A stretch of DNA of 64,000 bases from Amphiscolops sp. MND2022. Its lineage: Eukaryota. The stretch spans positions 24,614,001 to 24,678,000 of the forward strand of contig OZ076411.1 in assembly GCA_964187785.1 (NCBI GenBank). The letters run 5' to 3'. Positions 5,340-55,292 of the stretch are shown piece after piece. The stretch's first letter is position 1. Each line of letters starts with the position of its first letter. The translations under genes were made by a program, and so were the position numbers. The notes beneath the pieces are model-generated. The model was not told where the DNA came from, did not search any database, and was given only the letters and a program-made list of their open reading frames with translations.

Positions 5340-5355
5340 TCTAGAATAGTTTTTA

Positions 5356-25700: not shown

Positions 25701-27450
25701 CAAAAATCTCAAGGAAATGAAACGATCGGAAACCAAGTGAAAAAATGTACTGCACTTTCTGTTGATGACTTCAACACTTTTCTTTATCTCTGCATATGAT
25801 ACAAAGAACACTATATTGACTCACAGATGGATAAATAAGCAAACTGAACATTCGCAATCTATGTTTTTCTTCTTTGTTACAGATGGCGAAATCTTGAAAG
25901 TTATTGAATCATTAAAGAACAAAAAATCTATTGTATTTGGGTGTATAGTGGCGGGGTGTATATGGGTGTATTGTATAAAAATGGATGTATAGGGGCCAGA
26001 TTTTTGAAAAAAGTGGCACGAGTTGTTAGTCCCTATTTAAAAACTGCGTTTAATGAATGTAAGTTTGAAGGCGTTTTCCCACAAATTTTGAAAATTGCGA
26101 AAAACCAAATTTTAAAGATGGACAAAACAATTTGTCTCAGTCTTGACTTCCTCAATGGACAATTCTATAATGGGGCAATTTATCTAAAGAAATTCAGAAA
26201 ATAATCCATAAAATATGTTGAACTATCTCGACAAATTTCCAATCCGTACAAACGATCAGAACGGTTCCAGAAAAAAAGGTACTATCCAAGCAGCAACTTC
26301 GCGGTATAAAACGATATAAGAAAATTGGCAAACCGAAGCAGAAACAAACAGCATTTTCGTTGATTTCAGAAAAGCGTTCAACTCAGTTGATCACCATGTC
26401 TTGTTGGATAAATTTTACCATATCGGTATTGGGGGTATTTTGCATAACCTTTGAGCAGATTTTTTGGCAAATAGGTTGCTGTGCGTCAAAATTGACGAAG
26501 AATGTTCAGCAATGAAAAAAAACGCGGAGTTCCACAGGGGTGAATTCGGGCCAACTTTTCTTTCTTGGTTTTTTGAGTGATTTTTGTGCATATGAAAAAT
26601 GGAGTGGCAAAGTTGTAAAGTATGCTGATGATACAGTAATGATTTGATGAAATATTCTCAAAATCTGCTAATAAACATTTGTTTCAAACATGGATGAATA
26701 AAATCGGAGTAGATTGTACATACACAATAGCTAAGTTTGTCGTTTTCGAGAAGAGATCAGCAAATCATTCAATATAGTAATTGGGGATCATGAAATTTCC
26801 TCTTGTGACAGTTACAAATACTCGGCCATGCCTTTTGATAAAAAATTGAACTTTGAAAAACACATTCACAGTGTTGTAGCCAAACTCGCACGACAATGCG
26901 GAATGCTTTACAAATCACGAGAATCTTTGAACAGGAGACAGTACAAAATTTTTGAACGTAAACGACACCAACTGTTCAATATGGCGTACTTTTGTATGGT
27001 TTAGGTTTAAAAACTAGACTCCACAAAAGTATGATACTTCAGAAAAAAACTAATTAGGATTGCTTCACGGCTTCCTGCCTCGACCAGTGTTATCAAAAAC
27101 TCAAAGGTTAAAAATTGGAACAATTTTTGAGTACCTTATTTACAAGATTCTCAAGTTTACCCTAAGCCAGATTCGAAATGGTTTCAAAATTCCTAATATT
27201 ATGACTCCAAACTGACAGACAAGGAAAAGAAAATTAAATTTTTGGAACTTCCCAGGAGGGAATGACAATCTGGAGTCTCGTGCCATAATTCTAATGAATG
27301 CTTTGCGTAAATAAGATGTCATACCTTCTGACAGAATAATTTGTGAGATGGACGAAAAATAACTTCGCAAATTCTATCACCAATTTGCAGATCTTCATAT
27401 TTTCGGCGACGGTGAGCTTATCGATATTATCGACAAGTAAATAAAACTGA
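22740..27450 (+). pseudogene. Heavily decayed non-LTR retrotransposon (LINE, CR1/L2-like clade), ORF1 plus EN-RT ORF2
   Basis: ORF1-like DIKACHPL...VIIK (23018-23694), AP-endonuclease remnants (LAEMWF, ACGDF, ~23960-24430), RT motifs FEGVFPQILKIAK (~26070), FVDFRKAF..VDH (~26355), GVPQG (~26526), YADDT (26621-26635). Boundaries approximate. Confidence 0.8.
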
Positions 27451-30400
27451 TAATTAAATGAGAAATCTCTACCACACCCAAAATTCTAACAAAAAAGTCA
27501 ACTTGAAGTTTCATGTTAACGGTAAGGCTTCCTCCTGAAAAGCGTCCACCTGAAAAGTGAATATGTGTATGTTTATATTTTTACATGTCATGGCCAATAG
27601 ATATCATAAATTCATAAATTGTTGATATTTCATATGGCGCCCCTGACAAATTCATTTATTATATAACACACGACACCCGCTAAGCACCGGGATATTTTCC
27701 GCCATGTTCGCCTTCAACAACTTAGCCATAGCTATTTTGGGAGGGTGGAATAAGATTTAAAGAAGAAGATCTGAAAGTTAGTGATGTTAGATCTTTTTCC
27801 TTTTAGATCTCATTCCCGCGATGAAATTTTAGATCTTATTCCCTTTAGATCTTATTCCCTTTAGATCTTATTCCCTTTTTTGACTTTAGATATTATTCTC
27901 GCTGTATGCTATTTTAGTTACTTGACTATTTTAGTTACTAGTAGCTATATAAAATAGTCAAGTAATCAAAATGTGGAGATTGTGTAAATTTGGCACAGTT
28001 TGGAAAAAAAACGCGTCACAGATCATGATTTTCCTCCCCATTTTGAAATGTGGGGTCGGAAAATAACAATAAGTGCTGTCTGAGTTTGACTGCAACATGA
28101 ACAGATTGCCTATCTGTCTACTTTTGACAGAAAATTTAAAATGCACAATTGTCTGAAAACATTACTCTGTGGCACTGCATAACAGTTTTCTACCCAAACC
28201 AAGGCGTTAGAAAATGGAAGACCTTTTAATTTCATCCTGTGAGATGACAGTTGATTTCGAACGATTAAGATTCATTGAAAATTGAGGTGAAAATGTTTAA
28301 GAGCTCAAAGGAATCTTCAATTGCTGCTTTTTTTTCTGCTAGACTGCCTTTTTTTGTTTGAGCCGTCAAAATGCCGAAGTGAAAGTCACAGAACAATTTA
28401 ATTGAATCGCATCTAACGCAAGGGAAATTGAAAAGATTTTTTTCGTTCAAGATTCCTATTTTCGCCCACTTTTAATAAGCTTGACGCTTTTTGAACCTGG
28501 CTCTCATAGTGCCTGACTCTCACAGTGGCAAAGTTTTTTGTCAGATGACAAATTCCATTTTTAGTCGACGCGTTTCGTAGAAAAACGCAGACTATAGTAG
28601 TGACTTTTCTTTTTTAGTCGGCGCTTTTTCGTAGAAAAACGCAGACTATAGTAGTGACTTTTTTAAGATCAACGAAGTGACAGATTTTATAAGCTTTATA
28701 AGCTGACTTGAACTAACACTAAATGCTACACTACTTCTACTGGGACTTGAGATAGAGGTTAATTAGGCTTTTTTGAGGTCCCTTTCTATATTTTTCGGCA
28801 CTATGCGACTTATCGGAGACCAAAAAATTTTGACAAAAACTTCGAAAAAAATAGGATTTTTTTTTCAATTTTTTCCTCATTCGGGTACTGTAGAAGAGAA
28901 TACGTGACACTTTGAAGTCCTTTTGTCATTTTTGAGCCTTAGATATGGCGCCAACTTGGGCCGTTCCCGGCTTGTTTAACAAACGTCTAGCTTTAGGTCT
29001 GATGATTACTGAAAGAAATCAAATGGTGCACTTTTTGAGTTTTTCACATTTTACATAATATACGTGATATTCATGATATGCATGATACTCATATATGATA
29101 TACATGATTAACTACAAAATTCTATCACCAAATTGCAGATCTTCATATTTTCGGCGACGGTGAGCTTATCGATATTATCGACAAGTAAATAAAACTGATA
29201 ATTAAATGAGAAATCTCTACCACACCCAAAACTCTAACAAAAAAGTCAACTTGAAGTTTCATGTTAACGTTAAGGCTTCCTCCTGAAAAGCGTCCACCTG
29301 AAAAGTGAATATGTGTATGTTTATATTTTTACATGTCATGGCCAATAGATATCATAAATTCATAAATTGTTGATATTTCATATGGCGCCCCTGACAAATT
29401 CATTTATTATATAACACACGATGCCCGCTAAGCACCGTGATATTTTCCGCCATGTTCGCCTTCAACAACTTAGCCATAGCTATTTTGGGAGGGTGGAATA
29501 TGATTTAAAGAAGAAGATCTGAAAGTTAGTGATGTTAGATCTTTTTCCTTTTAGATCTCATTCCCGCGATGAAATTTTAGATCTTATTCCCTTTAGATCT
29601 TATTCCCTTTAGATCTTATTCCCTTTTTTGACTTTAGATATTATTCTCGCTGTATGCTATTTTAGTTACTTGACTATTTTAGTTACTAGTAGCTATATAA
29701 AAAAGTCAAGTAATCAAAATGTGGAGATTGTGGAGATTTGGCACAGTTTGGAAAAAAACGCGTCAGAGATCATGATTTTCCTCCCCATTTTAAAATGTGG
29801 GGTCGGAAAATAACAATAAGTGCTGTCTGAGTTTGACTGCAACATGAACAGATTGCCTATCTGTCTACTTTTGACAGAAAATTTAAAATGCACAATTGTC
29901 TGAAAACATTACTCTGTGGCACTGCATAACAGTTTTCTACCCAAACCAAGGCGTTAGAAAATGGAAGTCCTTTTAATTTCATCCGGTGAGATGACAGTTG
30001 ATTTCGAACGATTAAGATTCATTGAAAATTGAGGTGAAAATGTTTAAGAGCTCAAAGGAATCTTCAATTGCTGCTTTTTTTTCTGCTAGACTGCCTTTTC
30101 TTTGTTTCAGCCGTCAAAATGCCGAAGTGAAAGTCACAGAACAATTTAATTGAATCGCATCTAACGCAAGGGAAATTGAAAAGATTTTTTTCGTTCAAGA
30201 TTCCTATTTTCGCCCACTTTTAATAAGCTTGACGCTTTTTGAACCTGGCTCTCATAGTGCTTGACTCTCACAGTGGCAAAGTTTTTTGTCAGATGACAAT
30301 TTCCATTTTTAGTCGACGCGTTTCGTAGAAAAACGCAGACTATAGTAGTGACTTTTCTTTTTTAGTCGGCGCTTTTTCGTAGAAAAACGCAGACTATAGT

Positions 30401-30867
30401 AGTGACTTTTTTAAGATCAACGAAGTGACAGATTTTATAAGCTTTATAAGCTGACTTGAACTAACACTAAATGCTACACTACTTCTACTGGGACTTGAGA
30501 TAGAGGTTAATCAGGCTTTTTTTGAGGTCCCTTTCTATATTTTTCGGCACTATGCGACTTATCGGAGACCAAAAAATTTTGACAAAAACTTCGAAAAAAA
30601 TAGGATTTTTTTTCAATTTTTTTCTCATTCGGGTACTGTAGAAGAGAATACGTGACACTTTGAAGTCCTTTTGTCATTTTTGAGCCTTAGATATGGCGCC
30701 GACTTGGGCCGTTCCCGGCTTGTTTAACAAACGTCTAGCTTTAGGTCTGATGATTACTGAAAGAAATCAAATGGTGCACTTTTTGAGTTTTTCACATTTT
30801 ACATAATATACGTGATATTCATGATATGCATGATATTCATATATGATATACATGATTAACTACAAAA
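27369..30867. repeat. 1748-bp tandem segmental duplication (27369-29116 / 29117-30864)
   Basis: Colinear copies with roughly 20 substitutions and small homopolymer indels (hand count), with aaa microhomology at the junction. Each unit carries family C, a LINE 5' fragment and a family A copy (28556-28976 / 30304-30724). Confidence 0.92.
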
Positions 30868-36650: not shown

Positions 36651-37440
36651 AAGCAAATTTTTCACTTTTACATTCAATACGACTCCCTTTACTACTTTGG
36701 ATGAATTTTCACTAACCTTGAATGAGTAAAAAACAATGCTGTGCTTGATTTTATTGATTGAAATACGGTTGACTGAGGAAGATGTTTTGGAGCAATTGAT
36801 ACTGGTAGATACCGAACCATGGAATCAATTCAGCGGCAGACTTGACATTTTGAAAAGAGTCTACTTCAATTGATCATGAATTTTTTCAAACAGAGTAGGA
36901 AAGTTTAGTTTCTGAGGAATTATACTCTCGTTTGTTGAAAATAAACTGAAGGACCATGCGCAAAAGCTTATCATTAACGGCAGCAAACAAACTGTCACGG
37001 CATGAAATGTCACCCATGACAGTTCTCAGTATGCATAAACTATGTTGAGTTGTTGAGGAACTCGTTTTGTGCGGACTCTCAGAAAATCAATATGCCGAAA
37101 ATCACTCAATGGAAGGAACTGTGAGTTTTATTTTGTAAGTCCTTCATCAGAATAGAGTTTAAAAACGTAACGAAAATTTTATCTGAAAAAAGTTGTCTTC
37201 GAAAACAACCAAACTGTGCCAAAAAACCAAAATTATAATAAACTTGTTTCGGTCACTTGGACCCGTTTGAGTGAAAAGCCGACAAACAACCACTCTAATT
37301 GTCGGGTTTTGATTATTGAAACGGAGACTGAAAATAACCAATGAAGCAAGTCAGCGCAGGTGTTCCACAAAGTTTCGAGTAGGTCCTTTCCCTTCTTCTG
37401 ATTTTCACCAAGGTCTTTTTCAAAACACTTGAAAATTACC

Positions 37441-39080
37441 TGTCGCAGGCGGCCGCCTGCGATGGCAACCTGTATACCATAGACCACAGTCTGCCAATTG
37501 CCCTACCCGGAACATTACCTTTATAACTACAAGGATAAATAACTTTGAGAACATTATTTCATTTAATATTTGCAACACATGTAAACCAATTTATGTATTT
37601 TATTTGTAATATGATTGATGTTTGACAGCAAGCTATACTGACAGGCAGAAAGGAAACGAGTTCAAATGTTTGCCTGTTAAGTATAGCTAGCATAGCCGCG
37701 CACGGCATATTAGCCAATCATAGCTCATCTTGTTTTATTTGTAGTTGTAGTAATGCATTCACTTATTAATCAGAATGGACCGTCACGGTCACTTGGCCTA
37801 AGCGGACTAATTGCATTTTGTTGCTATACTGAGTTGCTGTTAAATAAATAGAACAAAGCGGATGCTGTCTTAATGGCTGAACGGCCTTACTTGTCCAAAT
37901 GTCGCTAGTGCTACTGCTAGAGAAATAAGGCCCTATGCGGCCAGCGGACTAAATGAGTATTCTCATTTGTTAATATGATGAAATCGATGCTATTATTGAT
38001 ATGTTAATGAAATACGTGTTATGTATTACTGAGTGTTCAACCTCATGTAAACGTTAATATGTAGTGTTACTTCCCCTGTTTAATATGATAATATGGGGTT
38101 AAATGGTTCCTCGCAACAATAGACCGTGTAGGACCGCCATGAATCATTTTGCATGTAAAACTGTTGCTTACATGAATTTGTATATCTGAACATTTTGACC
38201 TATATGCAACGTGGCCCTGTTAGGCGCTTTGATTTAGCCGCCTATATAGGTCCACACTGACGTCATGTAGCTATTTATAGTTCTGATGTATCTATTTTTA
38301 GCCTGTGTGCTATTTTTAGCAGCATGATCATCAGAATTGCGGACGTCATGCTGTCTTGAGTATATATATATGCCCAAGTTAGCCCACAATTTCAATGATT
38401 GATACGATACGGTTATTATTCAGCTATTCTTTTACTGAGAGTACAAGATTCACTGTAAACCCAACAAACATTGTCCACAGGAACAATTTACTTATTTTCT
38501 CCTGGAAAGATATTTTCAATGCCGTCTACAAGAAAACAAAAGGCTAACGCCAGGAGGTCGAGAGAGTTAGACATGTTGTCCGACTACGGTAACATGGACG
38601 TGATGCTAGGCGAAGGTAATTCTAACTCTATAGAAAGAGAGCTAGATAGTCTCATTAATGTCCCTGAAGGGCCGCAAGACTTCAGGTCATTTCCTAAAAG
38701 GGAAAATTCATCTCAAGAAAATGAGATTAGAGATATTGATAACAGAAACGAACCAGTTAGAGAAAGAAGACTAATAGAATCAATTATTATGTTGTCTGGA
38801 GAAATGAATGCTAGAATGTCTCGTGAAATGGAAACAATGATGGATTTAATGCAATCACAAATCAGTAGCGCTATTAGCTCTGCCATAAGTGAAAGGATTA
38901 TTCCTGAGATACAGAACATGGTGGAAAACTTGCCTTTGAGTCAACCTGGCGCCGGACCGTGTATGTCCTCAAATGAGGATGGAATGAGAAATGTATGGAA
39001 AAGCTCAAATACGAAATTAACAAAGAAGGACTCAAGGTCTGCATGCGATCTGAGGGACCATGTGGACCCTGTTCCTTACA
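37441..39080 (+). repeat. 5' LTR (1640 bp), includes the first ~187 codons of gag
   Basis: TGTCGCAGG...GTTCCTTACA. About 11 substitutions and one TA indel (hand count) relative to 52552-54189. Confidence 0.95.
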
Positions 39081-40222
39081 TGGTGACAGGAGCTAACGAA
39101 CCCCAACAGCACATTCCTGAATTCCTCACAGGACGAATTTACTCCCAGCCCGACCTTCAGAGACAAGAATCCGCGCATGATACAACCCTCGACACAACCC
39201 TACCAGTGGCGGAGCCAGTTACAGCCCAACTGTCGCAAGACCCCATCAACCGATTGGCAGATGTCCTGGTAAATCTCCAGAACAAACCACAGTCGATGAC
39301 AATTCGACCAGTCACGACGAACCCTATGACATTTGACGGCAAAACAGAGAAATTCGAATTGTTTGAAGATTTATTTCATACAATGATAAAAATGCAACCC
39401 GCTATGACTGAACAAATGAAAATAAATCATTTTCATTCATTGCTCAGAAAAGGGGCCCTGCAAACCTTCCGAAATATAAACTCTATAAACCGTCAAACAC
39501 TGGAAGACGTACTTGTCATTTTTCGCCGCAAGTACGTTAAACCAGAGTCCCAAGCCACAGCCAAGCACAAGTGGCACAGACTCATTTTCGATCCCAACAC
39601 GATGAAACTACCCGATTTTCTCGAAGAACTCAATCAGGGTGCCGAGAAAGCCTTCGGGGAGAACGCCAAGAGTATGATCGATAGCCTCTTATATGCTAAA
39701 TTACCCCCAAAACTCAAAAGATCGGTGAATATGGCCCGACTGGAAAACGGGACCTACGAGGAGATTGTGGCACATTTAGAAAGAGAACTCGAATTAAACG
39801 CATTAGAAGAATCTGATGACTTGCCAATAGCTACAATGGCTTCATCGTCAGGAAAAGCACGAAATCTACTATCCAATGGCATCGACACCAACAAGAATAA
39901 CAAATGCTCATACTGCAAGGCTGAAGACCATTTCTGGAAGAATTGCCCAAAACTGAAAAAGAAGAAAGAATCAGAGGCCAAGAATGGCAAGAAGCCTCAA
40001 CGCCAAACTTACCCAGAATGTCCCACCTGCAGCAAAACCAATCATCCAGCAGAGAAATGTTGGCGCGGTGCTGGGGCCCACCTTCGTCCAAAACGAAATA
40101 GACAGGACTCCTCAAAAGACACGGAGCCCTCAGAGGACGAAGGCACTCGTACCAAAAACGAAAAACCCACCACATCCACATCAAACCAGTCCAATTTAAA
40201 AAAGACTGATTCAAAAAACTAA
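38519..40222 (+). CDS. gag: Gag polyprotein (567 aa from the first ATG)
   Basis: Intact ORF with capsid-like MTFDGKTEKFELFEDLF region and two CCHC knuckles, CSYCKAEDHFWKNC and CPTCSKTNHPAEKC. Confidence 0.93.
   Translation: MPSTRKQKANARRSRELDMLSDYGNMDVMLGEGNSNSIERELDSLINVPEGPQDFRSFPKRENSSQENEIRDIDNRNEPVRERRLIESIIMLSGEMNARMSREMETMMDLMQSQISSAISSAISERIIPEIQNMVENLPLSQPGAGPCMSSNEDGMRNVWKSSNTKLTKKDSRSACDLRDHVDPVPYMVTGANEPQQHIPEFLTGRIYSQPDLQRQESAHDTTLDTTLPVAEPVTAQLSQDPINRLADVLVNLQNKPQSMTIRPVTTNPMTFDGKTEKFELFEDLFHTMIKMQPAMTEQMKINHFHSLLRKGALQTFRNINSINRQTLEDVLVIFRRKYVKPESQATAKHKWHRLIFDPNTMKLPDFLEELNQGAEKAFGENAKSMIDSLLYAKLPPKLKRSVNMARLENGTYEEIVAHLERELELNALEESDDLPIATMASSSGKARNLLSNGIDTNKNNKCSYCKAEDHFWKNCPKLKKKKESEAKNGKKPQRQTYPECPTCSKTNHPAEKCWRGAGAHLRPKRNRQDSSKDTEPSEDEGTRTKNEKPTTSTSNQSNLKKTDSKN
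39081..39092 (+). promoter_or_regulatory. Primer-binding site, tRNA-Leu-like
   Basis: TGGTGACAGGAG immediately follows the LTR and matches the typical tRNA-Leu PBS TGGTGTCAGGAG at 11/12. It is also coding (M-V-T-G in gag). Confidence 0.75.
40213..40219 (+). promoter_or_regulatory. -1 ribosomal frameshift heptamer A AAA AAC
   Basis: Canonical X XXY YYZ motif in the gag frame directly before the TAA. A -1 slip gives KKLILPRLQICDR, the pol frame, which has no early ATG of its own. Confidence 0.85.
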
Positions 40223-40224
40223 TT

Positions 40225-43200
40225 TTGCCACGACTCCAAATATGTGACCGAATGTCGATACGACAATACGTCATATCAGACCCTGCTAACATTACCTACA
40301 AGCAATCACAAAATGACATCAATGGGACTCCATCGACTGTCTGGCAGCAGCAGATGGAGGAAGCATATACTGAAACTCAATATATCACAAATAGTGACCA
40401 CCCATACTTATACCGACGTAATAGCCACACGAAAGACTCTGAAACCCAATTCCGACCCTTACAAACTGTCGAAGACTATAACCCTCACTACTATGACCCT
40501 GAGTACGGCAGAGACCCGTACTGGGACGATGACATATACGACAAACAGAACTTACAATTCCGAAACGATGATTACCCTCCTACGGACGATGAAGATGATC
40601 CTGAGATTCTAGATAACGCACTGTCCCGGGCACTCATCGAACTGTGGCAACCAAATTTTGAGGCAATCAATGATCAGCCTCATGCAATAGAGACACAGGC
40701 CGCATCCGGCCTCCTAGATGAGACGGCCTTCATACATGTCCTTGTAAACAAAGAGGGAGAACCGGCATACATACCCCTATCAACGAACCTCGGACTTAAA
40801 TACAAAAAACGGATGCTATATTTCCCAATGGACTTTGGGGAATTGACCATAGACGGACTTATCGACACTGGAGCTCTGTCAAGTGCAATACCAGAAGCAG
40901 ACCTCAGGAAAATACGCTTACTAGCGCCTCAATCCATAGTCAAAGAGGGACCTGCGCCAACATTCCAAATCATGGTCGCAAATGGTCAATTAGAAACCCC
41001 AAAGAGCACTGTTGAACTCAAGTTCGAAGTTGGAGACATTGAATTCCACGAAATCTTTATAGTGATGGAAAAACTGACCGGCCCCATTATAGGACTAATG
41101 TTCCTTCAAAGGAATCACACAGTCCTGGACATGCGACAAGGCATCCTTAACTTTCCCTATTTCTCTATGCAACTTAAAACGGCTGACCACAAATATTCAA
41201 ACGTCTTGGAACCTATACTTAACCCAGACGATGTTACAATACCACCCAATGACCGTACTGTAGTAGAGATCAAATCTCAGATATATAATGAAAATTCGGT
41301 CACAGGGGTGTTACAACCCAGTGATCTTCTCCACGAGGAGAGCGACATCACATTTTGTGCCGCAATAGTCACGTTGACTAATGGAAACGTCAGCGTTCAT
41401 ATTAACAATTTCTCAGACCAACCTTACAAGCTCAAAAAGGGACTACACATAGCGAATTTTTCAGTACTAACGCCGGAACAGATGAAACACGTTAAACCAA
41501 TAGACCCGGTGTCCACTTGGCATCTTCTCAACGAAAATGAAGAAGACGCGATCTATTACGTGAGTAGTCTACTTAAGGCTAACAGAAACAATGACCAATA
41601 CGAACAGTACTGGTTTCCAACCCCAGAGAATCCAGGGGACGAAGATTCCCACACTCCCATCCAACGACGAATTCTCCAGGAATTACGCAATCTACAAGAA
41701 GTTGAACAGCTGGACCCTCAAAACGATGAGGAGTCACGACATAAATTTCTTAGCAACTTTGACTGGAAGGACTCGATGCTACAACAGCACGAAATTAAAA
41801 AGATTGAATCGCTCCTAGTTGAATACCATGATATATTCGCCAGACACAGATTTCACATCGGGATGAATGAAAAATTCACGGTCAAACTAACCCCCAAGGA
41901 CGATTCGCCCGCATATAGCCAAAATCTACCCACCCCAGTCAACTTAAAAGAGGACATCCTCGTTGAACTGGCCCTTTTACACAAATATGGCATCATAACT
42001 ACACTGCCATTTTCTAAATATGCCAGTCCCAGATTCGCACAGAAGAAGCCGAATGGGAAACTGAGACTTTTGGTCGACCTAAGGAAAATCAATAACCTTA
42101 TTTCGGACGACTACATAAACAACAATCATCCAGTTAGCACATTGACGGACGCCGCACAGCATATGGCAGGAAAAAAATTATTCTGTAAACTTGACTGTTC
42201 ACAGGCGTACCATTGCCTTCCAATGGCGGACCAAAGGTCCATCGAGATGCTTGCGTTCAACTTTGCGAGCCGCACTTTCGCCTACAGAAGACTTGCCCAG
42301 GGCCTTAGCAGAGCATTATCAGCATTTTCAAGCTTTATGCGAGAAAACCTTGATAAAGTTATTAAAGCAGATCAATGTGCCCAATATGTCGATGACATCG
42401 GCATAGCTGCCAACGACGCCGATCATCTCATCAAAATTTTGAAAGCAACGTTCGAATGTATCAGACCTTAAGCTAACAATGCACAAATGCCATTTTGGGG
42501 CGACAGAAACTGACTTCCTAGGAAGAACAATTACTCCCGAAGGAGTCAAACCACAAAAGGAACAAATAACAACCTTTCTGGAAAAGACCAAATTCCCCAA
42601 ATCCAAAAAAGCCCTGCAGAGATACCTTGGTTTCCTCAACTATTACAGGAACTTTATACCAAGATTATCTGAGAAACTAGCCCCCTTCTTCCAACTCCTC
42701 AAAAAGGACGAGAAGGTACTCGTGACCACGGAGCTAGTACAACAATTCAACGAAATTAATCGAGATCTTGACAAATGTAGCCAATTGGCCCTGAAGCAAC
42801 CTCTCCCAAACAAACAGCTAGTCCTGATGACAGAACCTAGCTTTACAGCGGCAGGCTACGCGATACTTACCGAAGACCACCCAAATCAAAAATTCACTTC
42901 TGTCAAAAAATCGTATGCTCCAATAGCATATGGATCAAAGACGTTCACCCCATCACAACTCAAAATGTCCATATACGCCAAAGAATTCTTAGCTATATAT
43001 TATGCATTCAAAGAATTTGGACACATATTCTGGGGAACACCCAAACCGACCACCATCCTCACGGACAACAAATCGGTAACGGGGTTTTTCCAAACGAAAA
43101 TAATACCTCCAGCGCTATGGAACGCGTGTGACTACGTTTTACAATTCAATTTTATCATTGCCCACATTCCTGGCAAAAACAATACCGCGGCGGACTATTT

Positions 43201-45415
43201 ATCTCGAATGGAAATGGATCCTAAAGAAAAATTAGTCCTGAAAATCCGCGAAGATGTGGAAACACGGCCCATTGAGGTAAATGTCCAATCAGCTGGCGTA
43301 TCAGAAGAGGAGCAAATTTTCTTCACAGAGGATGATGGTGAAACAGAAGCCCAAATTTGGGAACGCAAAAAACAAAGCCGTACCAATCCAACCGACCAGG
43401 AGGTCGTAATCCAGATAGACGCAATAACTGAAAATATAGTTGATGAAATTACAAACTTTACACAAAAGTTGCGCCGAACGAATCAAATACTGCTCGAACA
43501 GTCTAAAGACCCTACTTTGCAACAACTCAAAGCAAAAATACAGAACGAAGATTATTCTGAAGAAATTCTCCAACAGGACATTCGATACAAACACTATCTC
43601 AACAATTTGGACCGAATAGTCCTTAAAGACAAAATAGTCACGCGACAGTACTATGATGAAACTGGACAAATCAAACACCACCAAATTCTCTTACCAAAAC
43701 ACCTATTGAAAGAACTTTTAAACGCATTGCACGGCACCGCGCACAAGCATCCCGGCATATCAAAAATGCTACAGGAAAATCGTCAGAAATACTATTACCC
43801 AGGTATAGCAAAACACGTCAAAAAATGGGTAGAGGGATGTGAAACTTGTGCAAGGGACAAACGTGTTCCAAACAACACAATCACCCCTGAGTTGCTCAAC
43901 TTGCCTGAATGGGACCTCGGACCGGAGGATGCAATGCAAATTGATTTATTACCAAATCTACCAACAAGTGGAGGCTACCAAACCGTGATGACAGCGATAG
44001 GTGTTTTCTCAAGATACCTGTTTGCCTACCCGTTAGTAGAAGCTACCGCTTCAAACACAGCAAAAGTTCTGATTGACATCATGACAAAACATACATATCT
44101 GCCGACAACAATCATCACTGACAAAGGAACTGCTTTCACGTCAAAAAATATCGCAGAAATAACCGAAATTCTCGGAATTACACTAAGATGTGCAACGACT
44201 AAACACCCGCAAACAATCGGCAAACTAGAGAGGACACACGCCTCTTTAAAGACTAATTTGAAGATGGCCTCAGGGGAATATCGCCGGCAATGGCATAAAT
44301 ACCTACCACTGGCAGTACTCAATTACAATACCACCTACCACTCCAGTATTGGTTGTGAGCCAAGTAAGGTCTTCCACGGACGAATTCCCTACAACGTCCT
44401 AGATCATAAACTTGGAAATAATCCTAATAAAGATTTCTTGCCTACTACGGAATTTGCGGAAGAATTACAACAGAGAACACAAATTCTCATTGACAAAACG
44501 AAGCAAAATATCATGCAGTCATACTTGAAATACAAGGAATACTATGACCGGAAGGCCAAGGCAGCTCCCCTTAGTGAACAAGATTTTTGCTTTATTCTGC
44601 AACCCAAAGCAGATAATCAAGGATCAAAAATACCCTTTAGGGAGTACCGCTGGATCGGTCCCTACAGAATTGAAAAGGTATTACCTAATGACAATTACAT
44701 TGTTAGACGGTTAAATACAAATAAAACACAGATATTACACCGGATTCGTCTGAAAAAATTTGTTCCAAACACACCCTTAGAGGACAAATATTCCAAAGAG
44801 AAATTGCAACCAGATGAAGAAATAATCATTCCGCAAGATGATTTATATACCATCTCTTGGGAAGCAGACTTTGATTACCAAGTCTTCGGGCCGAGACGGG
44901 ACGATAACACGAATGAAGAATTACAAATTGACAACGACGCTAGTACTACTACTCGTGATTACGTCATTGATGAAGACGCTGATCACAACGCAAGAAGGCC
45001 GGGAACGGCCACCAGTCGAGACAGCACAATTACGCGAGACGCAAATGACGTCACCGAAGGGAATGAAAATGAAGCAAGACCGAGTACGGCAAATAACCGA
45101 GACGCGCGTACATTGAATGACGATGATGACGTCAATGACAATACTGCAAACGACAAAAGAAACAGTGAAAATGAAAGGCCGAGTACGGCCACAAGCCGAG
45201 ATAACCAAACTTATGGCGACACGCCTACTGAATTGCACAATGAAATTGATGATAGTACTAAACGTTCTCCTAAAAGAGGGGAGGATGATCCCGTGCCCGG
45301 AATATCGGATGATGAAAGAAATGAAAAAATAGAAGGAAATTCAAGCCCTAGAGAAGGGAAATATAATCTTCGACCTAACCCCACCCCCAACTATACTGAC
45401 GAATACAGATACTAG
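40225..45415 (+). pseudogene. pol: Pol (protease, dUTPase-like spacer, RT, RNase H, integrase) broken by one frameshift at ~42470
   Basis: LIDTGA, LRLLVDLRKIN, YVDD, LMTEPSF (expected TDAS), HGTAHKH...CETC, integrase MQIDLL / ITDKGTAF / GKLERTH. Split into ORFs 40225-42471 and 42479-45415, apparently by a small deletion in ECIR-[KAG]-LKLTMHKC. Confidence 0.93.
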
Positions 45416-46750
45416 TCAGAAATGTTAAATTATGTCCCTATTTATTTTACTGCCCAAGAAGGCATGTTCTTTACTGGGACTACTCTGACTTTTGACTCAA
45501 AAGAAACTAACTATATAAATACAGAGACAAGAAACAGAACTCAAATTTACAAATAAAAAGTCTACAATGGCAAATGTACAATATGTAGATTTAGTCTTTA
45601 GAGCTACCTTCTTTTGGATTTTCTTCGGCCTTTGAAGTTTCAGTGGGAATTATACTTCCAAAGAAAGCGGGCTTCTGAGAACTCCCAGATTCACGAACAA
45701 CTTTATGGCCTGCTGTGGATGAAACTGAAGAGCAACGTGAAGGGCCGGCAATTACCTTGACAGGAGTAGGCTTGAGGCCTTTAAAAGTCGTCATTAAACT
45801 CTTCTGAAAGGCTGAACGCCCAAAAGCATCCACGTGCGTCCAGGGATCCCCTGCGAACTGACCAGAACTAAACTGACTATCCATTTCGCGAAATTTGGCA
45901 ATGGAACTCTCGGAGGTGCAGTAGCTGACGGACTGAGAACAATTGGCCAAATAAGACAGAGCCGGTAAGAGCATATCTGTGAAACGGCATTTGGGCTTGG
46001 ACGTATCCACTTCATGGAATTTAATAGCTGGAAGTTCAGTACCACTCTCAGTAAGGCAGAGGCAACTAAGCCGAAATAAGTGAAACAAACTTTTGCGACT
46101 GCGTAAGGCAGGAAGGGCAACGAGAAAACCGACCATATCTTTCATTTGGCCGGGCACGTCCTTAAGCTGAGGGAAATTAGCTCGAAAGTGATCCACGAAT
46201 TCCATGTATTCGTCTCGATAATCAGCCTCTGAAGAACGCTGTACCCATCCGCGAAGGGCAAAGGTCTGGAAAAGGGCTCCAAAACAGAACGTCACTTGCT
46301 CCATTGACAGGGAAACCAGAGTGTGGGGATCAAAGCAAGCCAAGCCGTGGACAATGTCAGCTGTAAGATGGACGTCACGAAGTATTGTCTCGAGCAAAAA
46401 GACGAAGTACCCTCTGGCATTCGTCGCAAAATTATCCCTTTCGGCAACTAGCAGACAACTAAATTCATTGGCACTAATGTTAGGGTCACTGCGAGACTGA
46501 CGGATTTTGGCCTTGCAAACGAGGTCGATGTCGGTGACAAGCTTCAGCCGGTGCAGGAAATCTCGGCAAGATAATAACTTTAAATCATCAGGGCACAAAT
46601 AAAGCATTCCAGTCCAATCCATGTCGCCAGGGATACACTTAGGAAGGACGGCCCGTGAACAAAGTTTTCGTAGGAAGCGACAAAATTGTCCGAAAGTGAA
46701 GAAGGATGCATCGGCTTGCCCAGACAGACTGCGTTCGAAGCACTTGACGT

Positions 46751-46814
46751 CTAAACACCACATATATAGCGGGGAATCAGAGGAAAAGAGAAATGACCAA
46801 AAGGTCATACTTAC
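46751..46814 (-). other. Spliceosomal intron 3 (64 nt)
   Basis: GTAAGT...pyrimidine-rich...GTTTAG, phase 1. Joins EIFGLIVRD-Y to VKCFERSL in the 409-aa ORF frame. Confidence 0.7.
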
Positions 46815-47203
46815 AATCACGGACTATGAGACCGAAGATCTCCAACTTGATAGTGAAGTATTCATCCATCAGAATCATCCACTCAAGACTTTGTGGCTGA
46901 AAAGGTCTATGGATAAATCCTCGGAGTGAAAGTTCAAATAACGCTTAGGGAACTACTATTCTTGAAACCATAAACGGAATTTTGACCAGGAGGTGGAAGA
47001 CAAAACCATAATGTTCACGCTCAACATTAGCTGTAAAAGCCTAATCAACTGAACAATAGGAAACTCACCCTGCCTCGAACTCCCTGTCCGGATTGGGAAG
47101 GTGCATCTTTAGTCATGAAGTCACGAATGTTTGGCCACTGTGCAACAATTTCCCCACATAAGGCTGGAATGGTTTGCAGATTCAGATCACATGTAGTAAT
47201 GGC

Positions 47204-47317
47204 CTGAAAAATACACAATCATTGCCTGTATGCAACTCTGACGTTACCCATCCCTCACTCCTTCACTTGTACAACCAGTTGTTCAGTGCTTAGAAGATAA
47301 GATGAGAAGAAACTAAC
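47204..47317 (-). other. Spliceosomal intron 2 (114 nt)
   Basis: GTTAGT...TATTTTTCAG, contains two in-frame TGA. Joins CPNLST to AITTCDLNLQ. Confidence 0.65.
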
Positions 47318-47435
47318 CGTCGAGAGATTGGGGCAGTCTAACATCCAAGTTTGGCTAAGACCGTTGACGAGGAAAACGGTTAAGTACTTGACTTGAGAGA
47401 AGATATCGATCTTTCCAAAGAAACATTCGTACTTC

Positions 47436-49571
47436 TGATGCATGAGTTTTGGCAATGAAAGCACCTCGAATCTGAAGGGATATTGCAGGGAGAACTTGAA
47501 AAGGTCACTTCGGTCAAGGGTTTGCAACACGGCGGAAGGACAGCCGGACACGCTGACTAAGTTAGGCCCGACGGAGACGAAGGACAGCAATCGTGAAATG
47601 GAACCGAAGAAGTTCCCAGGGTACGAGGAAGCCAGTGGGTGTCTGCACAGCTCTATCCGCTGGATGACATCCTCCCGCCAGAAACGTACGGCCATGTAAC
47701 AGAAGCCTTTGCGGTTCGTAAACTCCAGAGAGTAAATGCCTTCTGTGGTGATCTGTCCTGCTATATCTTCAGTGCAACGTAAGAAGACGTGATGGAAGAT
47801 TTTCTGGAAACAAAATTAATATTGTTAGCACGGAACTTCCAAAAGGGTCACTCTGGCCAGGGAGTTAATGTAATACTTACAGTGAGGTTGTCAGATCTCC
47901 AATCGAAATCGGAGAAGAACCCTTGGTGGCTAGTGAAGGTTCCGAATTGTGTCCACAGATTTCTCAGTAGGGCTAAATCACCTCCGTGTGGGGCAAGGAG
48001 CCCGATCAAGGAAATTTGGGTAGTCATTCGGAGTTCATCTGGACTGGATGTTCCTCCCATTGTTGCAACGTAATCGTCGTAAAATGGAAACTTGTCTCCA
48101 ATATCGACGAGGGGGGCATCAATAAAAAAACTCTTCTCTTTCTCCAGTTGTAGAGGAGTAAGTATTTAATCGTCCTTCCCTCGGACTTGGTGGGTCACCT
48201 TGCCAGTTGTAGCATCTATTTCTCTGAGGTGTTCATACCTCCATTTTTGGTCACGTCGCAGGTGGCCTTGAGTCTTGTAATGGCGAAGGTTCTCTCGGGC
48301 GCCTTTAGAATATATTGATATGTTTGTTTTACATATCTGGCAATAGAATTTGTAACGATTATGTAAGGGATCGAGGGGTCCTGAGACAAAAAGCCTTGTC
48401 CATTGGATGCCTTTAAAGTAGGCATCCTTCATGACTTTGCCTGGTTTGCAAAGCATTCTCCTCCGCTTACGAGGAGGACTAGAATCTGCCCCAACGGGGG
48501 CTTGATGCATGAGTTTTGGCAATGAAAGCACCTCGAATCTGAAGGGATATTGCAGGGAGAACTTGAAAAGGTCACTTCGGTCAAGGGTTTGCAACACGGC
48601 GGAAGGACAGCCGGACACGCTGACTAAGTTAGGCCCGACGGAGACGAAGGACAGCAATCGTGAAATGGAACCGAAGAAGTTCCCAGGGTACGAGGAAGCC
48701 AGTGGGTGTCTGCACAGCTCTATCCGCTGGATGACATCCTCCCGCCAGAAACGTACGGCCATGTAACAGAAGCCTTTGCGGTTCGTAAACTCCAGAGAGT
48801 AAATGCCTTCTGTGGTGATCTGTCCTGCTATATCTTCAGTGCAACGTAAGAAGACGTGATGGAAGATTTTCTGGAAACAAAATTAATATTGTTAGCACGG
48901 AACTTCCAAAAGGGTCACTCTGGCCAGGGAGTTAATGTAATACTTACAGTGAGGTTGTCAGATCTCCAATCGAAATCGGAGAAGAACCCTTGGTGGCTAG
49001 TGAAGGTTCCGAATTGTGTCCACAGATTTCTCAGTAGGGCTAAATCACCTCCGTGTGGGGCAAGGAGCCCGATCAAGGAAATTTGGGTAGTCATTCGGAG
49101 TTCATCTGGACTGGATGTTCCTCCCATTGTTGCAACGTAATCGTCGTAAAATGGAAACTTGTCTCCAATATCGACGAGGGGGGCATCAATAAAAAAACTC
49201 TTCTCTTTCTCCAGTTGTAGAGGAGTAAGTATTTAATCGTCCTTCCCTCGGACTTGGTGGGTCACCTTGCCAGTTGTAGCATCTATTTCTCTGAGGTGTT
49301 CATACCTCCATTTTTGGTCACGTCGCAGGTGGCCTTGAGTCTTGTAATGGCGAAGGATCTCTCGGGCGCCTTTAGAATATATTGATATGTTTGTTTTACA
49401 TATCTGGCAATAGAATTTGTAACGATTATGTAAGGGATCGAGGGGTCCTGAGACAAAAAGCCTTGTCCATTGGATGCCTTTAAAGTAGGCATCCTTCATG
49501 ACTTTGCCTGGTTTGCAAAGCATTCTCCTCCGCTTACGAGGAGGACTAGAATCTGCCCCAACGGGGGCTTG
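47436..49571. repeat. 1067-bp tandem duplication inside the antisense gene (47436-48502 / 48503-49569)
   Basis: Duplicate ORFs offset by exactly 1067 (47442/48509, 47789/48856, 48166/49233). TG microhomology. At least one substitution (ARENLRH vs AREILRH). Confidence 0.95.
48871..48947 (-). other. Spliceosomal intron 1 (77 nt; duplicate at 47804-47880)
   Basis: GTAAGT...GCTAACA(branch)...TTTTGTTTCCAG, phase 0/0. Joins ...SDNLT to KIFHHVFLRC...YMAVRFW in frame. Confidence 0.8.
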
Positions 49572-51803
49572 TGCCTGCGAAAGAGAAGCTAAAGGACGGT
49601 AATCACCACTGCTGTAGCTGCTGCCTGAACAAGGGGTCAGTATCCTGGCTGGATCATGTTGATCTACCGCCATGTCGAGAGTCTTGGAAGCGGAAATGAT
49701 AGGTGGGCAGCCTTCGGACCCAGTCTCGATGTTCCTCATGTCCTCATCAGTGTCCATTGCCCCGCTGGTGTAGCCGTCACTTTCGATTCCCGTGCTCTCA
49801 CCTCCAGAGCTGGACTCGTACCCGGGGCCGGGAGTGGCAGACCTGCGAGGAATATTTCGCGAGGTACGCTTGTTCAGAGGGATCCCCTCAGTTAACTTTA
49901 TCAGTAGCGATTTCATCATGTGGAATGACGACAGCACTGACTCATCAGCTATGGTTCTCAGCACGCCATGAACCTGACTTTCACTAAAGGCAACAGTTGA
50001 ATGACCGGCTGGCAGCTCGACAGGCACGTTCTTTGTGAAGAACTTACGGATAACTTCTCTCCCGGTTGGTGATAGGTTTCGTTCAGTCGAAAGCATCTTG
50101 TCCCGATAGGCAGCTTGTTCAGCATCACTATTCCTTGAAGACTGCTGCAAATCCTCGTCAAGGCTTGTGAATAAGTCAGGATCAAATGAGAAAGTGCCTA
50201 ATTTAGTGGTAGGCAGATCGACTCCAGAACTGTCGTACAACTCTCCCGGGTCACTGGTATCAGAGTGCAAAGCCCTACACTCAAGAGTTCTTGTTCGGGA
50301 TTCTTCACTATTGCCCGGGACCGGCTGTGGTGCTTTGGTAATTTCTAAAGTTATCGACTCAGAGACTTTAGGAGCTCCATGTGTGTTTTCCTCAGCCTCA
50401 GGAACTTTGGGAGCCGCGTGTGGATCTTCTTCAAGGACGGTGTCAAGGGGTGTTGTTGATGCACCTGGAAACTGTGAGACAACTTTCTCAATATAGGCGC
50501 TTACACTCTCGTCAGTTGAGTTGGACGCCTGGGATTCGGGTCGCACTTCTTTTTCTGGCACATTTTGGAATTGGGCCGGTTCATGTTCTTGTCCCTGACC
50601 AATGGGAGCAATGGTAGGATTGGTGGATTCTGGCAACCTCTCTTCGTTAGACATCTCTAAATGGAAAGAGACAAATTTTAGCGGGTAGCTTCCTGAATAT
50701 GAATCCATGAGACCGCTTTACAAATCTTCTAGAAGTAAAATTGAAACATACGGCAAAACGCTTATGCTCTTTGAAACAAATGGACAGGAAGTATTACGAG
50801 CGTGAACAGGTCCTGATCAAACCTATTTCCGTTCAAAAAGAAAAGACCAGATAGCTAACCTGACATTGCAAAAGATTTGAATCGGATGTAGTCCAGAAAG
50901 ACAATTGACAGGAAGATGGAGAAGGGAGACTGATGCTGTTACGAAGAATAAGGCACTCGGACCCCAAGTAGGAAATCCAACTTCAAAGAGAAGTCGTCTG
51001 CTGTCCGAGTATGGCCAAAGAGTAGAAGGCTGATAGTCCAATAGTGAACTTGATAATAATAAGTAACGGACCAGAAGACTAACAACTATACTAAATAGAC
51101 AATGTATAAATACGGAAGTGGTTAGAATTTGAATGGATAAAGTAACAATTGAATGAATGACGAAGATTGCTGAAAGAAGAGTTGGAGTTTGTGGCAAACT
51201 GGAATTGATGTCAAACAATTATACAATTATAGGTGTCATTTTGTGGATGGAACCTGCCAGAGAAATCCACAAAGTTATCCTCAAAATCTTATTTTACCAC
51301 GGATCTATTATTTTACAGTTATTTCATTATTTTATTTATTTCCTTATTTGGAATATTATTATTTCGTCCGCCATTTCGGAATGCGGATAGCAATGGCGAT
51401 TCTTATTGGCTATCGCGGCGATGAGCCGCGCGTGGCCTCAAATCTTGACTATTGGCTCTTGAAAGTCTCAAGTGGATGTTGAGAGCTGATAAACACTTAA
51501 AGGTGCCATTGATGTCTTCAAGCCGCATTAGGCAGACTGCTGAAGTAACGATGTAAACAAAGCGGCACGTTGGGGTCATCAAAGGTTGTTTGGAAGGAGT
51601 TATCGATATGAATGTTAACAGGAAGGCAAAACCCCGGGAAAGGAGTCACGGGTTTCGAAGTAAAAATCTTAAACGAAATCAAGAAAAGAAATTGTCATTC
51701 TCTCTCTTAAAGCCTACAAGTGCAGTTGGTCTTACAACTGAAATTCATAAAGTTGACTTCAATTTTCTACAAAATTGCGAAAAAACTGATAAAAACGCGA
51801 TAC

Positions 51804-52637
51804 ATGGCTGATAGATACCCGCAAGACTTTTGTGGCGCTGCGCCCCGAAGGATACAGCTAGTATATCTGTCCAGTGATGAAGAAGAGGAAATGGACGCAT
51901 TTAGTACTACATCCGTAATGGACCTCCAACTATCGTCAGAAGATGAGGAATACGACGATGAGATCTTGATGATGGCACAATGCGTCGAAATGCAACTGTC
52001 AACGCCTATACCTGTCCCTGGGTCTTCTACACCGAAAACGGACCGCCCTAACCTATTGAACAGGCCGTCTGAAAGCAAAAAGCCTAATCTGACACACAGC
52101 CCTAGTCCCGTCCCAGATCAGTCTTTCTTTTCATTGGGAAGGGGAAAGGGCCCGATAAGGCGTGATGATCGCATAAGGAATAACCACCCGATAAAGTTAT
52201 GCAGCGGACTAATCCCTCTGGTGGACACGCCAATGTCACCTCCCCCGGAAGAAAGAGGGCACTGTAGTTCTTTTTTCGACAACTATGCCGAGCGGCCAGA
52301 GTCACAACAATCTCTCGACGGAATTACAAATCATTTCCAAGGAATGGGACTCAGTGGGTCGGGGGCATTAGTGAACTACTCAGACTGTGTAATATGCGGG
52401 AAATCGACAATGCAAATTCAGCAAGAAGCAGTTGCGGACTACCTGGTCAAGACGGCTATTCCCGGAGAAACAGCACTACAAGTCGAAGCGCGTAAGAGAG
52501 CCTTCATTGAAGGGATGCAGGTTGGCACATTCTTACTTCTCCCAGGGGGAGTGTCGCAGGCGGCCGCCTGCGATGGCAACCTCTATACCATAGACCACAG
52601 TCTGCCAATTGCCCTACCCGGAACATTACCTTTATAA
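51804..52637 (+). CDS. Accessory sense ORF (277 aa from ATG), acidic N-terminus, Pro/Ser-rich, CxxC, unknown function
   Basis: Open frame 51720-52637 with ATG at 51804. Reads across the PPT and stops 86 nt inside the 3' LTR. No signal peptide or transmembrane segment seen. Confidence 0.7.
   Translation: MADRYPQDFCGAAPRRIQLVYLSSDEEEEMDAFSTTSVMDLQLSSEDEEYDDEILMMAQCVEMQLSTPIPVPGSSTPKTDRPNLLNRPSESKKPNLTHSPSPVPDQSFFSLGRGKGPIRRDDRIRNNHPIKLCSGLIPLVDTPMSPPPEERGHCSSFFDNYAERPESQQSLDGITNHFQGMGLSGSGALVNYSDCVICGKSTMQIQQEAVADYLVKTAIPGETALQVEARKRAFIEGMQVGTFLLLPGGVSQAAACDGNLYTIDHSLPIALPGTLPL
52544..52551 (+). promoter_or_regulatory. Polypurine tract
   Basis: AGGGGGAG immediately precedes the TGTCGCAGG start of the 3' LTR. 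Confidence 0.85.
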
Positions 52638-54189
52638 CTACAAGGATAAATAACTTTGAGAACATTATTTCATTTAATATTTGCAACACATGTAAACCAA
52701 TTTATGTATTTTATTTGTAATATGATTGATGTTTGACAGCAAGCTATACTGACAGGCAGAAAGGAAACGAGTTCAAATGTTTGCCTGTTAAGTATAGCTA
52801 GCATAGCCGCGCACGGCATATTAGCCAATCATAGCTCATCTTGTTTTATTTGTAGTTGTAGTAATGCATTCACTTATTAATCAGAATGGACCGTCACGGT
52901 CACTTGGCCTAAGCTGACTAATTGCATTTTGTTGCTATACTGAGTTGCTGTTAAATAAATAGAACAAAGCGGATGCTGTCTTAATGGCTGAACGGCCTTA
53001 CTTGTCCAAATGTCGCTAGTGCTACTGCTAGAGAAATAAGGCCCTATGCGGCCAGCGGACTAAATGAGTATTCTCATTTGTTAATATGATGAAATCGATG
53101 CTATTATTGATATGTTAATGAAATACGTGTTATGTATTACTGAGTGTTCAACCTCATGTAAACGTTAATATGTAGTGTTACTTCCCCTGTTTAATATGAT
53201 AATATGGGGTTAAATGGTTCCTCGCGACAATAGACCGTGTAGGACCGCCATGAATCATTTTGCATGTAAAACTGTTGCTTACATGAATTTGTATATCTGA
53301 ACATTTTGACCTATATGCAACGTGGCCCTGTTAGGCGCTTTGATTTAGCCGCCTATATAGGTCCACGCTGACGTCATGTAGCTATTTATAGTTCTGATGT
53401 ATCTACTTTTAGCCTGTGTGCTATTTTTAGCAGCATGATCATCAGAATTGTGGACGTCATGCTGTCTTGAGTATATATATGCCCAAGTTAGCCCACAATT
53501 TCAATGATTGATACGATACGGTTATTATTCAGTTATTCTTTTACTGAGAGTACAAGATTCACTGTAAACCCAACAAACATTGTCCACAGGAACAATTTAC
53601 TTATTTTCTCCTGGAAAGATATTTTCAATGCCGTCTACAAGAAAACAAAAGGCTAAAGCCAGGAGGTCGAGAGAGTTAGACATGTTTTCCGACTACGGTA
53701 ACATGGACGTGATGCTAGGCGAAGGTAATTCTAACTCTATAGAAAGAGAGCTAGATAGTCTCATTAATGTCCCTGAAGGGCCGCAAGACTTCAGGTCATT
53801 TCCTAACAGGGAAAATTCATCTCAAGAAAATGAGATTAGAGATATTGATAACAGAAACGAACCAGTTAGAGAAAGAAGACTAATAGAATCAATTAATATG
53901 TTGTCTGGAGAAATGAATGCTAGAATGTCTCGTGAAATGGAAACAATGATGGATTTAATGCAATCACAAATCAGTAGCGCTATTAGCTCTGCCATAAGTG
54001 AAAGGATTATTCCTGAGATACAGAACATGGTGGAAAACTTGCCTTTGAGTCAACCTGGCGCCGGACCGTGTATGTCCTCAAATGAGGATGGAATGAGAAA
54101 TGTATGGAAAAGCTCAAATACGAAATTAACAAAGAAGGACTCAAGGTCTGCATGCGATCTGAGGGACCATGTGGACCCTGTTCCTTACA
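52552..54189 (+). repeat. 3' LTR (1638 bp) carrying a second copy of the gag N-terminus
   Basis: Direct repeat of 37441-39080, followed by the TSD TTACC. ORF 53628-54215 is gag residues 1-187 running on into the flank (PVPY-ITEATRRR*). Confidence 0.95.
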
Positions 54190-55292
54190 TTACCGAAGCA
54201 ACACGAAGACGCTAATGGGTTTTGTATTGAAGTTCGTAGCACTGTGTGCACAATGCGACTTATGAGAACTCGCAATTATTCACTGATGTTTGAGTAAAAA
54301 ATATGCTTCAGCAAAGTCGTTTTTCAAACATCGACACCACAGCCACGGGGAAGCAAATGAAACAAAAATCAGAAAAACTAAATACAGCTTGTAGGAAAAA
54401 TTGTGGCTAATTTTTTTTCAAGAAAACTGTTGGACTCTCGGTATCTACAAATGAAGAAAGAAGTTTGTAAAGAGAATCTTTTGAAGCATACTTGTTGGAA
54501 CGTTTACCGTCTATTTTTGCGAGGGATAAAAAGTATTTCAAGTTTCCAGAAACTGGTTGATTTAATTACATATGACATACAAGTTTATGACAAGAAACTC
54601 TTTTCTTCATATACATGATCTGTACAAAAGTGAAAATCATGACGAAACGCGCTAATTTTTGCCTACAACTGGGTCATTTCGCTCGATTTTCACTTCAAAA
54701 TGGAGGCTAATCAAAGAAAAACAGTCGATATGATGATACGAAAAACAGCTTCTGAAATAGCATTTTGTGTGCCACTTTTGAACTGTTTGTGAAAAGTTTC
54801 AATACCAAAAGATATGGAATATTAGACAAGTAATTATTTTTGGAAATAAGTGTATTGGATAAGTAGATGTTTCTGAAACTTTTCACTAATCCGTCGAAAT
54901 TCTTTCCGAATATCAAGACATTCTAGAGAAAGAACGACTGAACTTTTGTCTAGTAGAAATCTCAAATCATTTAAACAGATGGTGAAAGAAGAAAGCATGA
55001 AATATACGATACTAATTTAATACTTTTGAGCTATTGGTAGTATTACTATTAGCAAAATTTCGAAATCTTCTACTCGCAGCCTGCCATATAATTCTGTAGA
55101 ATTTTGAGCTTGTCCGAAACATGTAAAAACATTTTCCCAAAAATCAAGCTATATTTTAAATAACCCTAAAATGGAATGTGAAGTAGATTATGTGAGTGAA
55201 ACCTCCTCCCCACTGATGTGATGAAACTCAACCATCCTTTAAATAGCGAAAACTAGAATGTTGATGTGATGATTGTGTCGCAATAATTAGTC

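Follow-up and report, generated by a model that had tools for sequence, protein, structure and literature searches.

Can the long terminal repeat (LTR) of a retrotransposon encode a sizeable part of its own Gag protein, and what would follow for the copies that it leaves in a genome? The question is raised by a complete young 16.7-kb LTR retrotransposon at 37441-54189 of a 64,000-nt window from Amphiscolops sp. MND2022 (contig OZ076411.1), the whole stretch of DNA in which features were sought and to whose positions all coordinates refer. Its gag ATG (38519), the first in its frame after the stop at 38456, sits 562 nt short of the LTR end, which leaves about one third of gag (187 of 567 codons) coded by the LTR; codon 188, again an ATG, consists of the last A of the LTR and the first TG of the primer-binding site (PBS). 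A preliminary description of the locus had reported this start and a frame read across the LTR end and PBS, and its coordinates are correct. The duplication of the LTR-coded part, hereafter the Gag head, in the 3' LTR as a 195-codon chimera ending at 54215 was likewise recovered, as open reading frame (ORF) 53628-54215. We favor, with a probability of about 0.8, the reading that this is an ordinary tRNA-primed Ty3/gypsy element in which R-U5 of the LTR would hold the first 187 gag codons.

The composition of the LTR-coded part resembles that of coding sequence. None of 20,000 base shuffles of its 562 nt kept the frame open, and its purine bias by codon position (0.70/0.53/0.56) is like that of the gag core (0.60/0.52/0.53) and pol (0.63/0.53/0.51), unlike that of the upstream LTR (0.47/0.52/0.45). 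To follow the head across the family, a protein search was scored on Gag aa 1-330 (2255 matches); because this search favors head-bearing proteins, a second used only the capsid core for scoring (aa 240-480; 2609 matches), and the following counts come from the best 120 of these 2609, which may stem from one or few assemblies. A full head was present in 103, a near-full head in 8 and a partial head in 6, while 3 started at or near the PBS. The preliminary description had named, as the outcome that would speak against it, translation from the ATG at the PBS with the upstream frame often broken in other copies; with 103 full heads and only 3 of 120 starts at or near the PBS, that is not the pattern of this family, and the head stands as a conserved, family-wide part of Gag. 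The peptide at the LTR/PBS junction read YMVTG in 108, HMVTG in 7, YIVTG in 1 and YMVRG in 1 of the same 120, with 3 unparsed.

Identity between other subgroups and the window Gag, computed on 102 full-length proteins of which many are near-identical, alternates along the head: 69% in aa 1-42, 19% in aa 43-85, 50% in aa 86-136, 15% in aa 137-165 and 76% in aa 166-180, then 0% in aa 181-186, 99% in aa 187-192 and 96% in the capsid core. The head thus comprises a basic start (6 K/R in 16 aa) and three conserved blocks (aa 1-42, 86-136 and 166-180) with variable linkers between them, and net deletions of 4-6 aa within it across subgroups are all in frame. Conserved blocks alternating with linkers while the frame is kept make the head look like protein under selection, and it is probably functional as part of Gag. 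A search of a 50%-cluster library with the head gave 587 matches and 146 new representatives (P0241-P0386), 26 of which carry the same junction, the remaining ones being fragments or lacking the motif; some of the junction-bearing representatives have heads just ~41-47% identical to the query.

An AlphaFold model of Gag on a 68-row alignment was poor overall (mean predicted local distance difference test score, pLDDT, of 43), its sole confident part being a single long helix within the head. Hydrophobicity along this helix peaks at a period of 3.8 among 10 values tried rather than at the heptad value of 3.5, so we do not claim a canonical coiled coil, and a homodimer prediction for aa 72-142 scored 0.01. 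A fold search with the same low-confidence model found no match at E 0.001. By Atlas features, the look-alikes of Gag fall in Retrotrans_gag, Ty3_capsid and zf-CCHC clusters (score 0.93), and in Pfam DUF1759 was matched at E 6e-5, below the cut-off.

Several observations weigh against a Gag that starts in the LTR. The core-ranked match list favors young intact copies. The single AATAAA of the LTR, at 37843, lies 400-500 nt upstream of two TATA-like runs, so promoter and poly(A) signal show no obvious simple arrangement. Seven ATGs, moreover, lie between 38200 and 38518. All 4 of the substitutions between the two LTRs that fall inside the head are non-synonymous, and purifying selection after insertion is therefore not shown; such changes are expected for a dead copy, though they lend no support to a coding function. 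Four pyrimidine-tract-plus-AG sites lie at 38295-38509 (+), just 5' of the gag ATG, where splicing or trans-splicing could strip upstream ATGs.

The junction itself raises the question of which way the constraint runs. The peptide Y/H-M-V-T-G is the reading of xAC ATG GTG ACA GG, with the LTR ending after the A of the ATG; the fixed DNA here is ...ACA at the LTR end followed by TGGTGACAGG, and an LTR end and primer site usually read CA followed by TGG. Since residues 187-192 are nearly invariant and the six residues just upstream share nothing, DNA signals most likely fix the peptide. The preliminary description had placed the integrase att site and PBS under coding constraint; the direction is probably the reverse, with the integrase end and PBS dictating [YH]-M-V-T-G in a tolerant linker. 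The block at aa 166-180 could be conserved either as protein or as a U5 signal, and a predicted RNA fold of 39000-39140 was no more stable than shuffles (z -0.99).

The preliminary description had also set the gag start inside the LTR against the normal start downstream of the PBS. The long overlap is real, and a departure from everything known would be an overstatement: in the yeast element Ty1, a 53-nt 5' UTR, a PBS at RNA nt 95-104 inside GAG, a 334-bp LTR and an R region from nt 241 are given in PMC5454406, and arithmetic on these figures places the start codon ~41 nt (about 14 codons) before the LTR end. Silent changes in the Ty1 PBS leave the Gag sequence intact (PMC5454406, PMC3592414), and Ty1/Ty2 of Saccharomyces (Pseudoviridae, Ty1/copia) likewise start GAG inside the LTR with the PBS within coding sequence (PMC5454406). 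Unlike Ty1, the element here has Ty3/gypsy order, a 1.64-kb LTR and a -1 rather than a +1 shift, and its 562-nt (187-codon) overlap is about 14 times longer and includes a predicted helical domain. The layout is thus known from Ty1, and we regard this one as an extreme, family-wide variant, structural rather than a new mechanism: a Ty1-type overlap stretched from about 14 codons to one third of Gag in a gypsy family that is very abundant, as the 2255 and 2609 matches indicate. The text consulted in PMC2582038 and PMC8293314 mentions no gag start inside the LTR for Boudicca of Schistosoma. Gag starts of the present kind may occur in acoel worms. Acoel worm genomes are described as rich in LTR elements (PMC9911081). 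An exact-phrase full-text literature search, covering few subscription papers and neither Repbase, GyDB nor supplements, found no long LTR-coded Gag head in titles or abstracts, and element tables in supplements of genome papers could already annotate this family.

Under the favored reading, transcription would start in the LTR upstream of 38519, and ribosomes would read the genomic RNA from ATG 38519 across the LTR end and PBS to give capsid and nucleocapsid, reaching pol by a -1 shift. The head, with its basic tip, long helix and flexible linkers, would form the pre-capsid part of Gag, probably for oligomerization or targeting. Minus-strand strong-stop DNA would be at least 562 nt long and carry the head, and reverse transcription would place the head in both new LTRs; 3' and solo LTRs would then keep the frame intact automatically, as selection upholds it in the 5' copy. 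LTR recombination would be tied to protein-domain exchange, as a swap of U5 between co-packaged RNAs would exchange a domain of Gag.

At the first strand transfer, strong-stop DNA can move to the second of two packaged RNAs, so that the R/U5 of one parent becomes linked to the other parent's body (PMC6894440). In our alignments, several divergent heads sit on near-identical bodies, as would be expected from an exchange of LTR sequence, and heads are both more diverse and more mosaic than bodies. Within pairs among P0040, P0030 and P0079, 21-32 sites differ up to aa 181-183, yet aa 188-240 are identical, and P0079 has P0086 as its sister in the tree of heads but groups with P0040/P0030 in that of bodies, with a change point at aa 179-183. 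In 8 of 14 pairs, hand-picked and non-independent, far fewer differences followed the junction than scaling by rate would predict (P about 0.01 or lower). When one tree was compared with two for 19 representatives at 25 positions, the best split fell at aa 187 (gain 160.5), followed by aa 245 (159.1). Heads could also exceed bodies in diversity because the LTR part evolves faster or because bodies were recently swept, rather than through strand-transfer exchange at the LTR end, and to this explanation we give slightly less than an even chance. Of the gain at aa 187, 133.5 is branch length; with rates allowed to differ, aa 120 ranks first among 10 positions (121 log-likelihood units), with 98 at aa 187 and 90 and 91 at its neighbors; a segment-type graph test for mosaics found no cycles; and in some pairs the break falls close to aa 85 or 240. 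These results count against exchange at the LTR end, while the change of sister by P0079 and the sharp fall to zero differences just past aa 183 in three related pairs are hard to place under rates or sweeps. Recombination within the LTR-coded part seems likely. The LTR end appears as a small local peak among several breakpoints, not the dominant one, and a special role for it is not established; exchange mainly at the LTR end was thus partly rejected, given the rate-corrected peak at aa 120 and the graph without cycles.

The head also occurs apart from the rest of Gag. A search for short head-bearing proteins gave 409 matches, and among the best 120 of them 74 joined the head to an unrelated tail, 10 continued into gag and 36 were unclassifiable (fragments or a changed motif); the tail-bearing proteins may come from 3' or solo LTRs, which protein data do not separate. 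Should these LTRs end in TAC-A, every tail would have to open with a residue that an ANN codon can encode, and this was so in 73 of the 74 (background 41%, P 2e-27). Of the 25 cluster representatives counted as tails, 24 obey this ANN rule, although one of the 25, P0332, is actually a read-through. The LTR end therefore lies at codon 187/188 family-wide, even where heads are <50% identical. The layout scatters hundreds of LTR-head ORFs through the genome, and gene callers list these as genes.

One conceivable role for these ORFs is restriction, in which free head made from 3' or solo LTRs would co-assemble with full Gag through the helix and restrain the family, much as p22/p18 control the copy number of Ty1. 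Many of the 409 short matches have the entire head intact, the helix is a discrete conserved unit, and a truncated-Gag restriction factor exists in Ty1 (PMC13709905). Intact frames, on the other hand, result from copying alone; with random tails, a large share of the products would bear junk C-termini; and Ty1 p22 acts, according to the same source, via the capsid C-terminal domain, which is absent from the head. We consider this restriction unlikely, and equally doubtful the wider idea that the LTR is a mobile coding cassette whose head is swapped at strand transfer and, when made from solo or 3' LTRs, restrains the family via helix binding to Gag. Were it true, solo LTRs would be a built-in copy-number-dependent brake and head exchange an escape route, and the family is a direct test case for the production of a restriction factor derived from Gag by solo LTRs.

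LTR-host chimeras might instead be a source of new host genes. The 74 chimeric ORFs are all distinct and the longest tails reach 70, 87 and 108 codons. Tail length overall (mean 19.6, median 15) nevertheless matches that of tails simulated from host DNA of the window (mean 18.8, median 13; Kolmogorov-Smirnov p 0.68), and only 1 pair of tails was mutually similar, in searches that covered unspliced fusions up to 310 aa or with the capsid core. Tails of the length expected from random host DNA make the chimeras look like by-products; the tails look neutral, with no sign of selection on the fusions, and a part in gene birth is improbable. The preliminary description had proposed that every 3' or solo LTR is a ready promoter-plus-ORF able to fuse with host sequence; the fusions are borne out at the level of sequence, with 74 of 120 short matches chimeric, and an importance of such fusions is not supported. 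The first host residue is skewed toward T (24), N (21) and S (11), with I 6, K 4 and M 0 (expected 13, 10, 6, 18, 14 and 5, in the same order; p 7e-8), which suggests an integrase target-site preference (first base not T; second a pyrimidine after A or G).

It is also improbable that Gag is mostly translated from the LTR/PBS ATG (39080) as a 380-aa protein, the LTR frame giving a rare extension or separate product: almost all junctions keep Met188 (115 of the 117 parsed, plus YMVRG), it has a purine at +4 and it precedes the whole capsid core and both knuckles, but it is forced by the final A of the LTR and TGG, no stop lies ahead of it in 117 of 120 matches, the head has conserved blocks and in-frame indels, and a tRNA annealed on the PBS would presumably cover that ATG.

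The favored reading of an ordinary Ty3/gypsy element agrees with its overall architecture (Table 1). The two LTRs are 99.2% identical, with 9 substitutions and one 2-nt indel. Pfam matches across 40252-45412 are ordered protease, reverse transcriptase (RT), RNase H, integrase, and the element is placed in the Ty3/gypsy (Metaviridae) class because integrase follows RNase H; for the same reason, integrase not preceding RT, membership in Ty1/copia (Pseudoviridae) is ruled out. Paired LTRs with a target-site duplication, a Ty3-type capsid and CCHC Gag and a polypurine tract are further features of the class. In a PDB search, foamy-virus, HIV and 4OL8 RTs were the only matches of the element RT. 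In this copy, a shift of reading frame within RT, near 42470, interrupts pol. A slippery heptamer at the gag stop points to a -1 frameshift from gag into pol, and no tRNA gene was detected in the 64-kb window. At the start of pol, 40252-40800 (+), ~190 acidic Tyr/Asp/Pro-rich codons precede the protease and match no family.

Table 1. Coordinates of features of the element, in window positions
Feature	Position	Strand	Basis
5' copy of 5-bp target-site duplication TTACC	37436..37440	.	sequence
5' LTR, 1640 nt, ends TGT...ACA	37441..39080	+	self-comparison, sequence
Two TATA-like runs (38243, 38361), 5' of gag ATG; candidate promoter	38243..38372	+	sequence
gag ORF, 567 aa, start within LTR	38519..40222	+	ORF list
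LTR-coded Gag head: 187 codons and A of codon 188	38519..39080	+	sequence, alignment
Predicted single 57-residue helix, aa 80-136	38756..38926	+	AlphaFold, pLDDT about 75-90
Putative PBS, starts TGG, adjoins LTR end, read in gag frame	39081..39098	+	sequence
Capsid core of Gag, aa 241-440	39239..39838	+	alignment, 96% identical across subgroups
Two CX2CX4HX4C zinc knuckles, aa 463-476 and 501-514	39905..40060	+	sequence; weak MLV NCp10 match, E 0.02
Slippery heptamer AAAAAAC directly before gag stop (AAAAAAC-TAA)	40213..40219	+	sequence; -1 frame open into pol
pol: protease, dUTPase-like domain, RT, RNase H, integrase	40213..45415	+	ORFs, Pfam
dUTPase-like domain, pol aa 325-405 of ORF 40252-42471, between protease and RT	41224-41466	+	Pfam E 2.5e-4, just under cut-off
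Antisense accessory ORFs: 405 aa at 45591-46808; 491 aa at 49233-50708 with C2H2-like finger	45591..50708	-	ORF list
277-aa ORF, no known family, crosses polypurine tract and 86 nt of 3' LTR	51804..52637	+	ORF list
Short polypurine tract AGGGGGAG, adjoins 3' LTR	52544..52551	+	sequence
3' LTR, 1638 nt, ends TGT...ACA	52552..54189	+	sequence
3' LTR copy of Gag head, 195 aa: 187 LTR codons and 8 host codons	53628..54215	+	ORF list; stop at 54215
3' copy of target-site duplication TTACC	54190..54194	.	sequence

A dUTPase between protease and RT, together with extra ORFs, is described in rotifer, planarian and fungal gypsy elements (PMC5408684, PMC6431247, PMC2774666), and the position is a rare trait of gypsy elements in rotifers, planarians and basidiomycetes. 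Bdelloid Juno, Vesta and TelKA, planarian Burro and basidiomycete elements share the order protease, dUTPase, RT, RNase H, integrase, CCHC knuckles and extra ORFs after pol (PMC5408684, PMC6431247). The bdelloid elements differ in their LTRs of 159-551 bp, and the descriptions on which the comparison is based give no gag start inside the LTR for any of these elements.

Past pol, the 491-aa antisense ORF ends in a C2H2/BED-like finger (weak Pfam match), further open pieces lie between it and the 405-aa ORF, and a 1067-nt tandem duplication occupies 47436-49571 with copies 99.9% identical; the antisense ORFs may be pieces of one long captured gene. They may resemble a hAT transposase, a likeness that Pfam did not support. 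A single-sequence structure model of the 405-aa ORF reached a pLDDT of just 36 and was set aside. The 277-aa ORF as a whole is non-random (0 of 5000 shuffles open), its 28 LTR codons alone staying open in 2006 of 5000. For an envelope family, the accessory ORFs gave no Pfam match and the 277-aa ORF no Atlas match, no deeper profile search being made. HIV nef and MMTV sag overlap the 3' LTR in U3 only; the 277-aa ORF likewise crosses the polypurine tract into U3, and here the U5/PBS border is coded too. Both LTR-internal borders of this copy fall in open frames (gag head/PBS and 277-aa ORF/polypurine tract).

DNA of relatives was found in neither the viral contigs nor the prokaryote genomes searched. 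Metagenome contigs contained one related locus (L001:43-1162), with a gag core 52% identical, on a contig that ends short of the head; its gag has a similar slippery heptamer and stop at the end, followed by a similar pol start. Among sequencing runs, no RNA data set was listed as containing the element, and one run matched (0.07 share), with short contigs that span neither head nor junction.

Elsewhere in the window, a second element at 4616-9687 has 724-nt direct repeats that are 99.3% identical, with TGT...ACA at the first copy and no frame >103 codons between them, and is likely a non-autonomous LTR element. At 15438-19840 (-) lies a fragmented gag-pol of an unrelated gypsy element with gag, zinc knuckle, protease and integrase matches, for which self-comparison of the window gave no LTR pair. 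A 1.75-kb tandem duplication (98.6%) occupies 27369-30867, and a wider inverted repeat at 57495-58772 contains a palindrome with 75-nt arms at 58000-58150.

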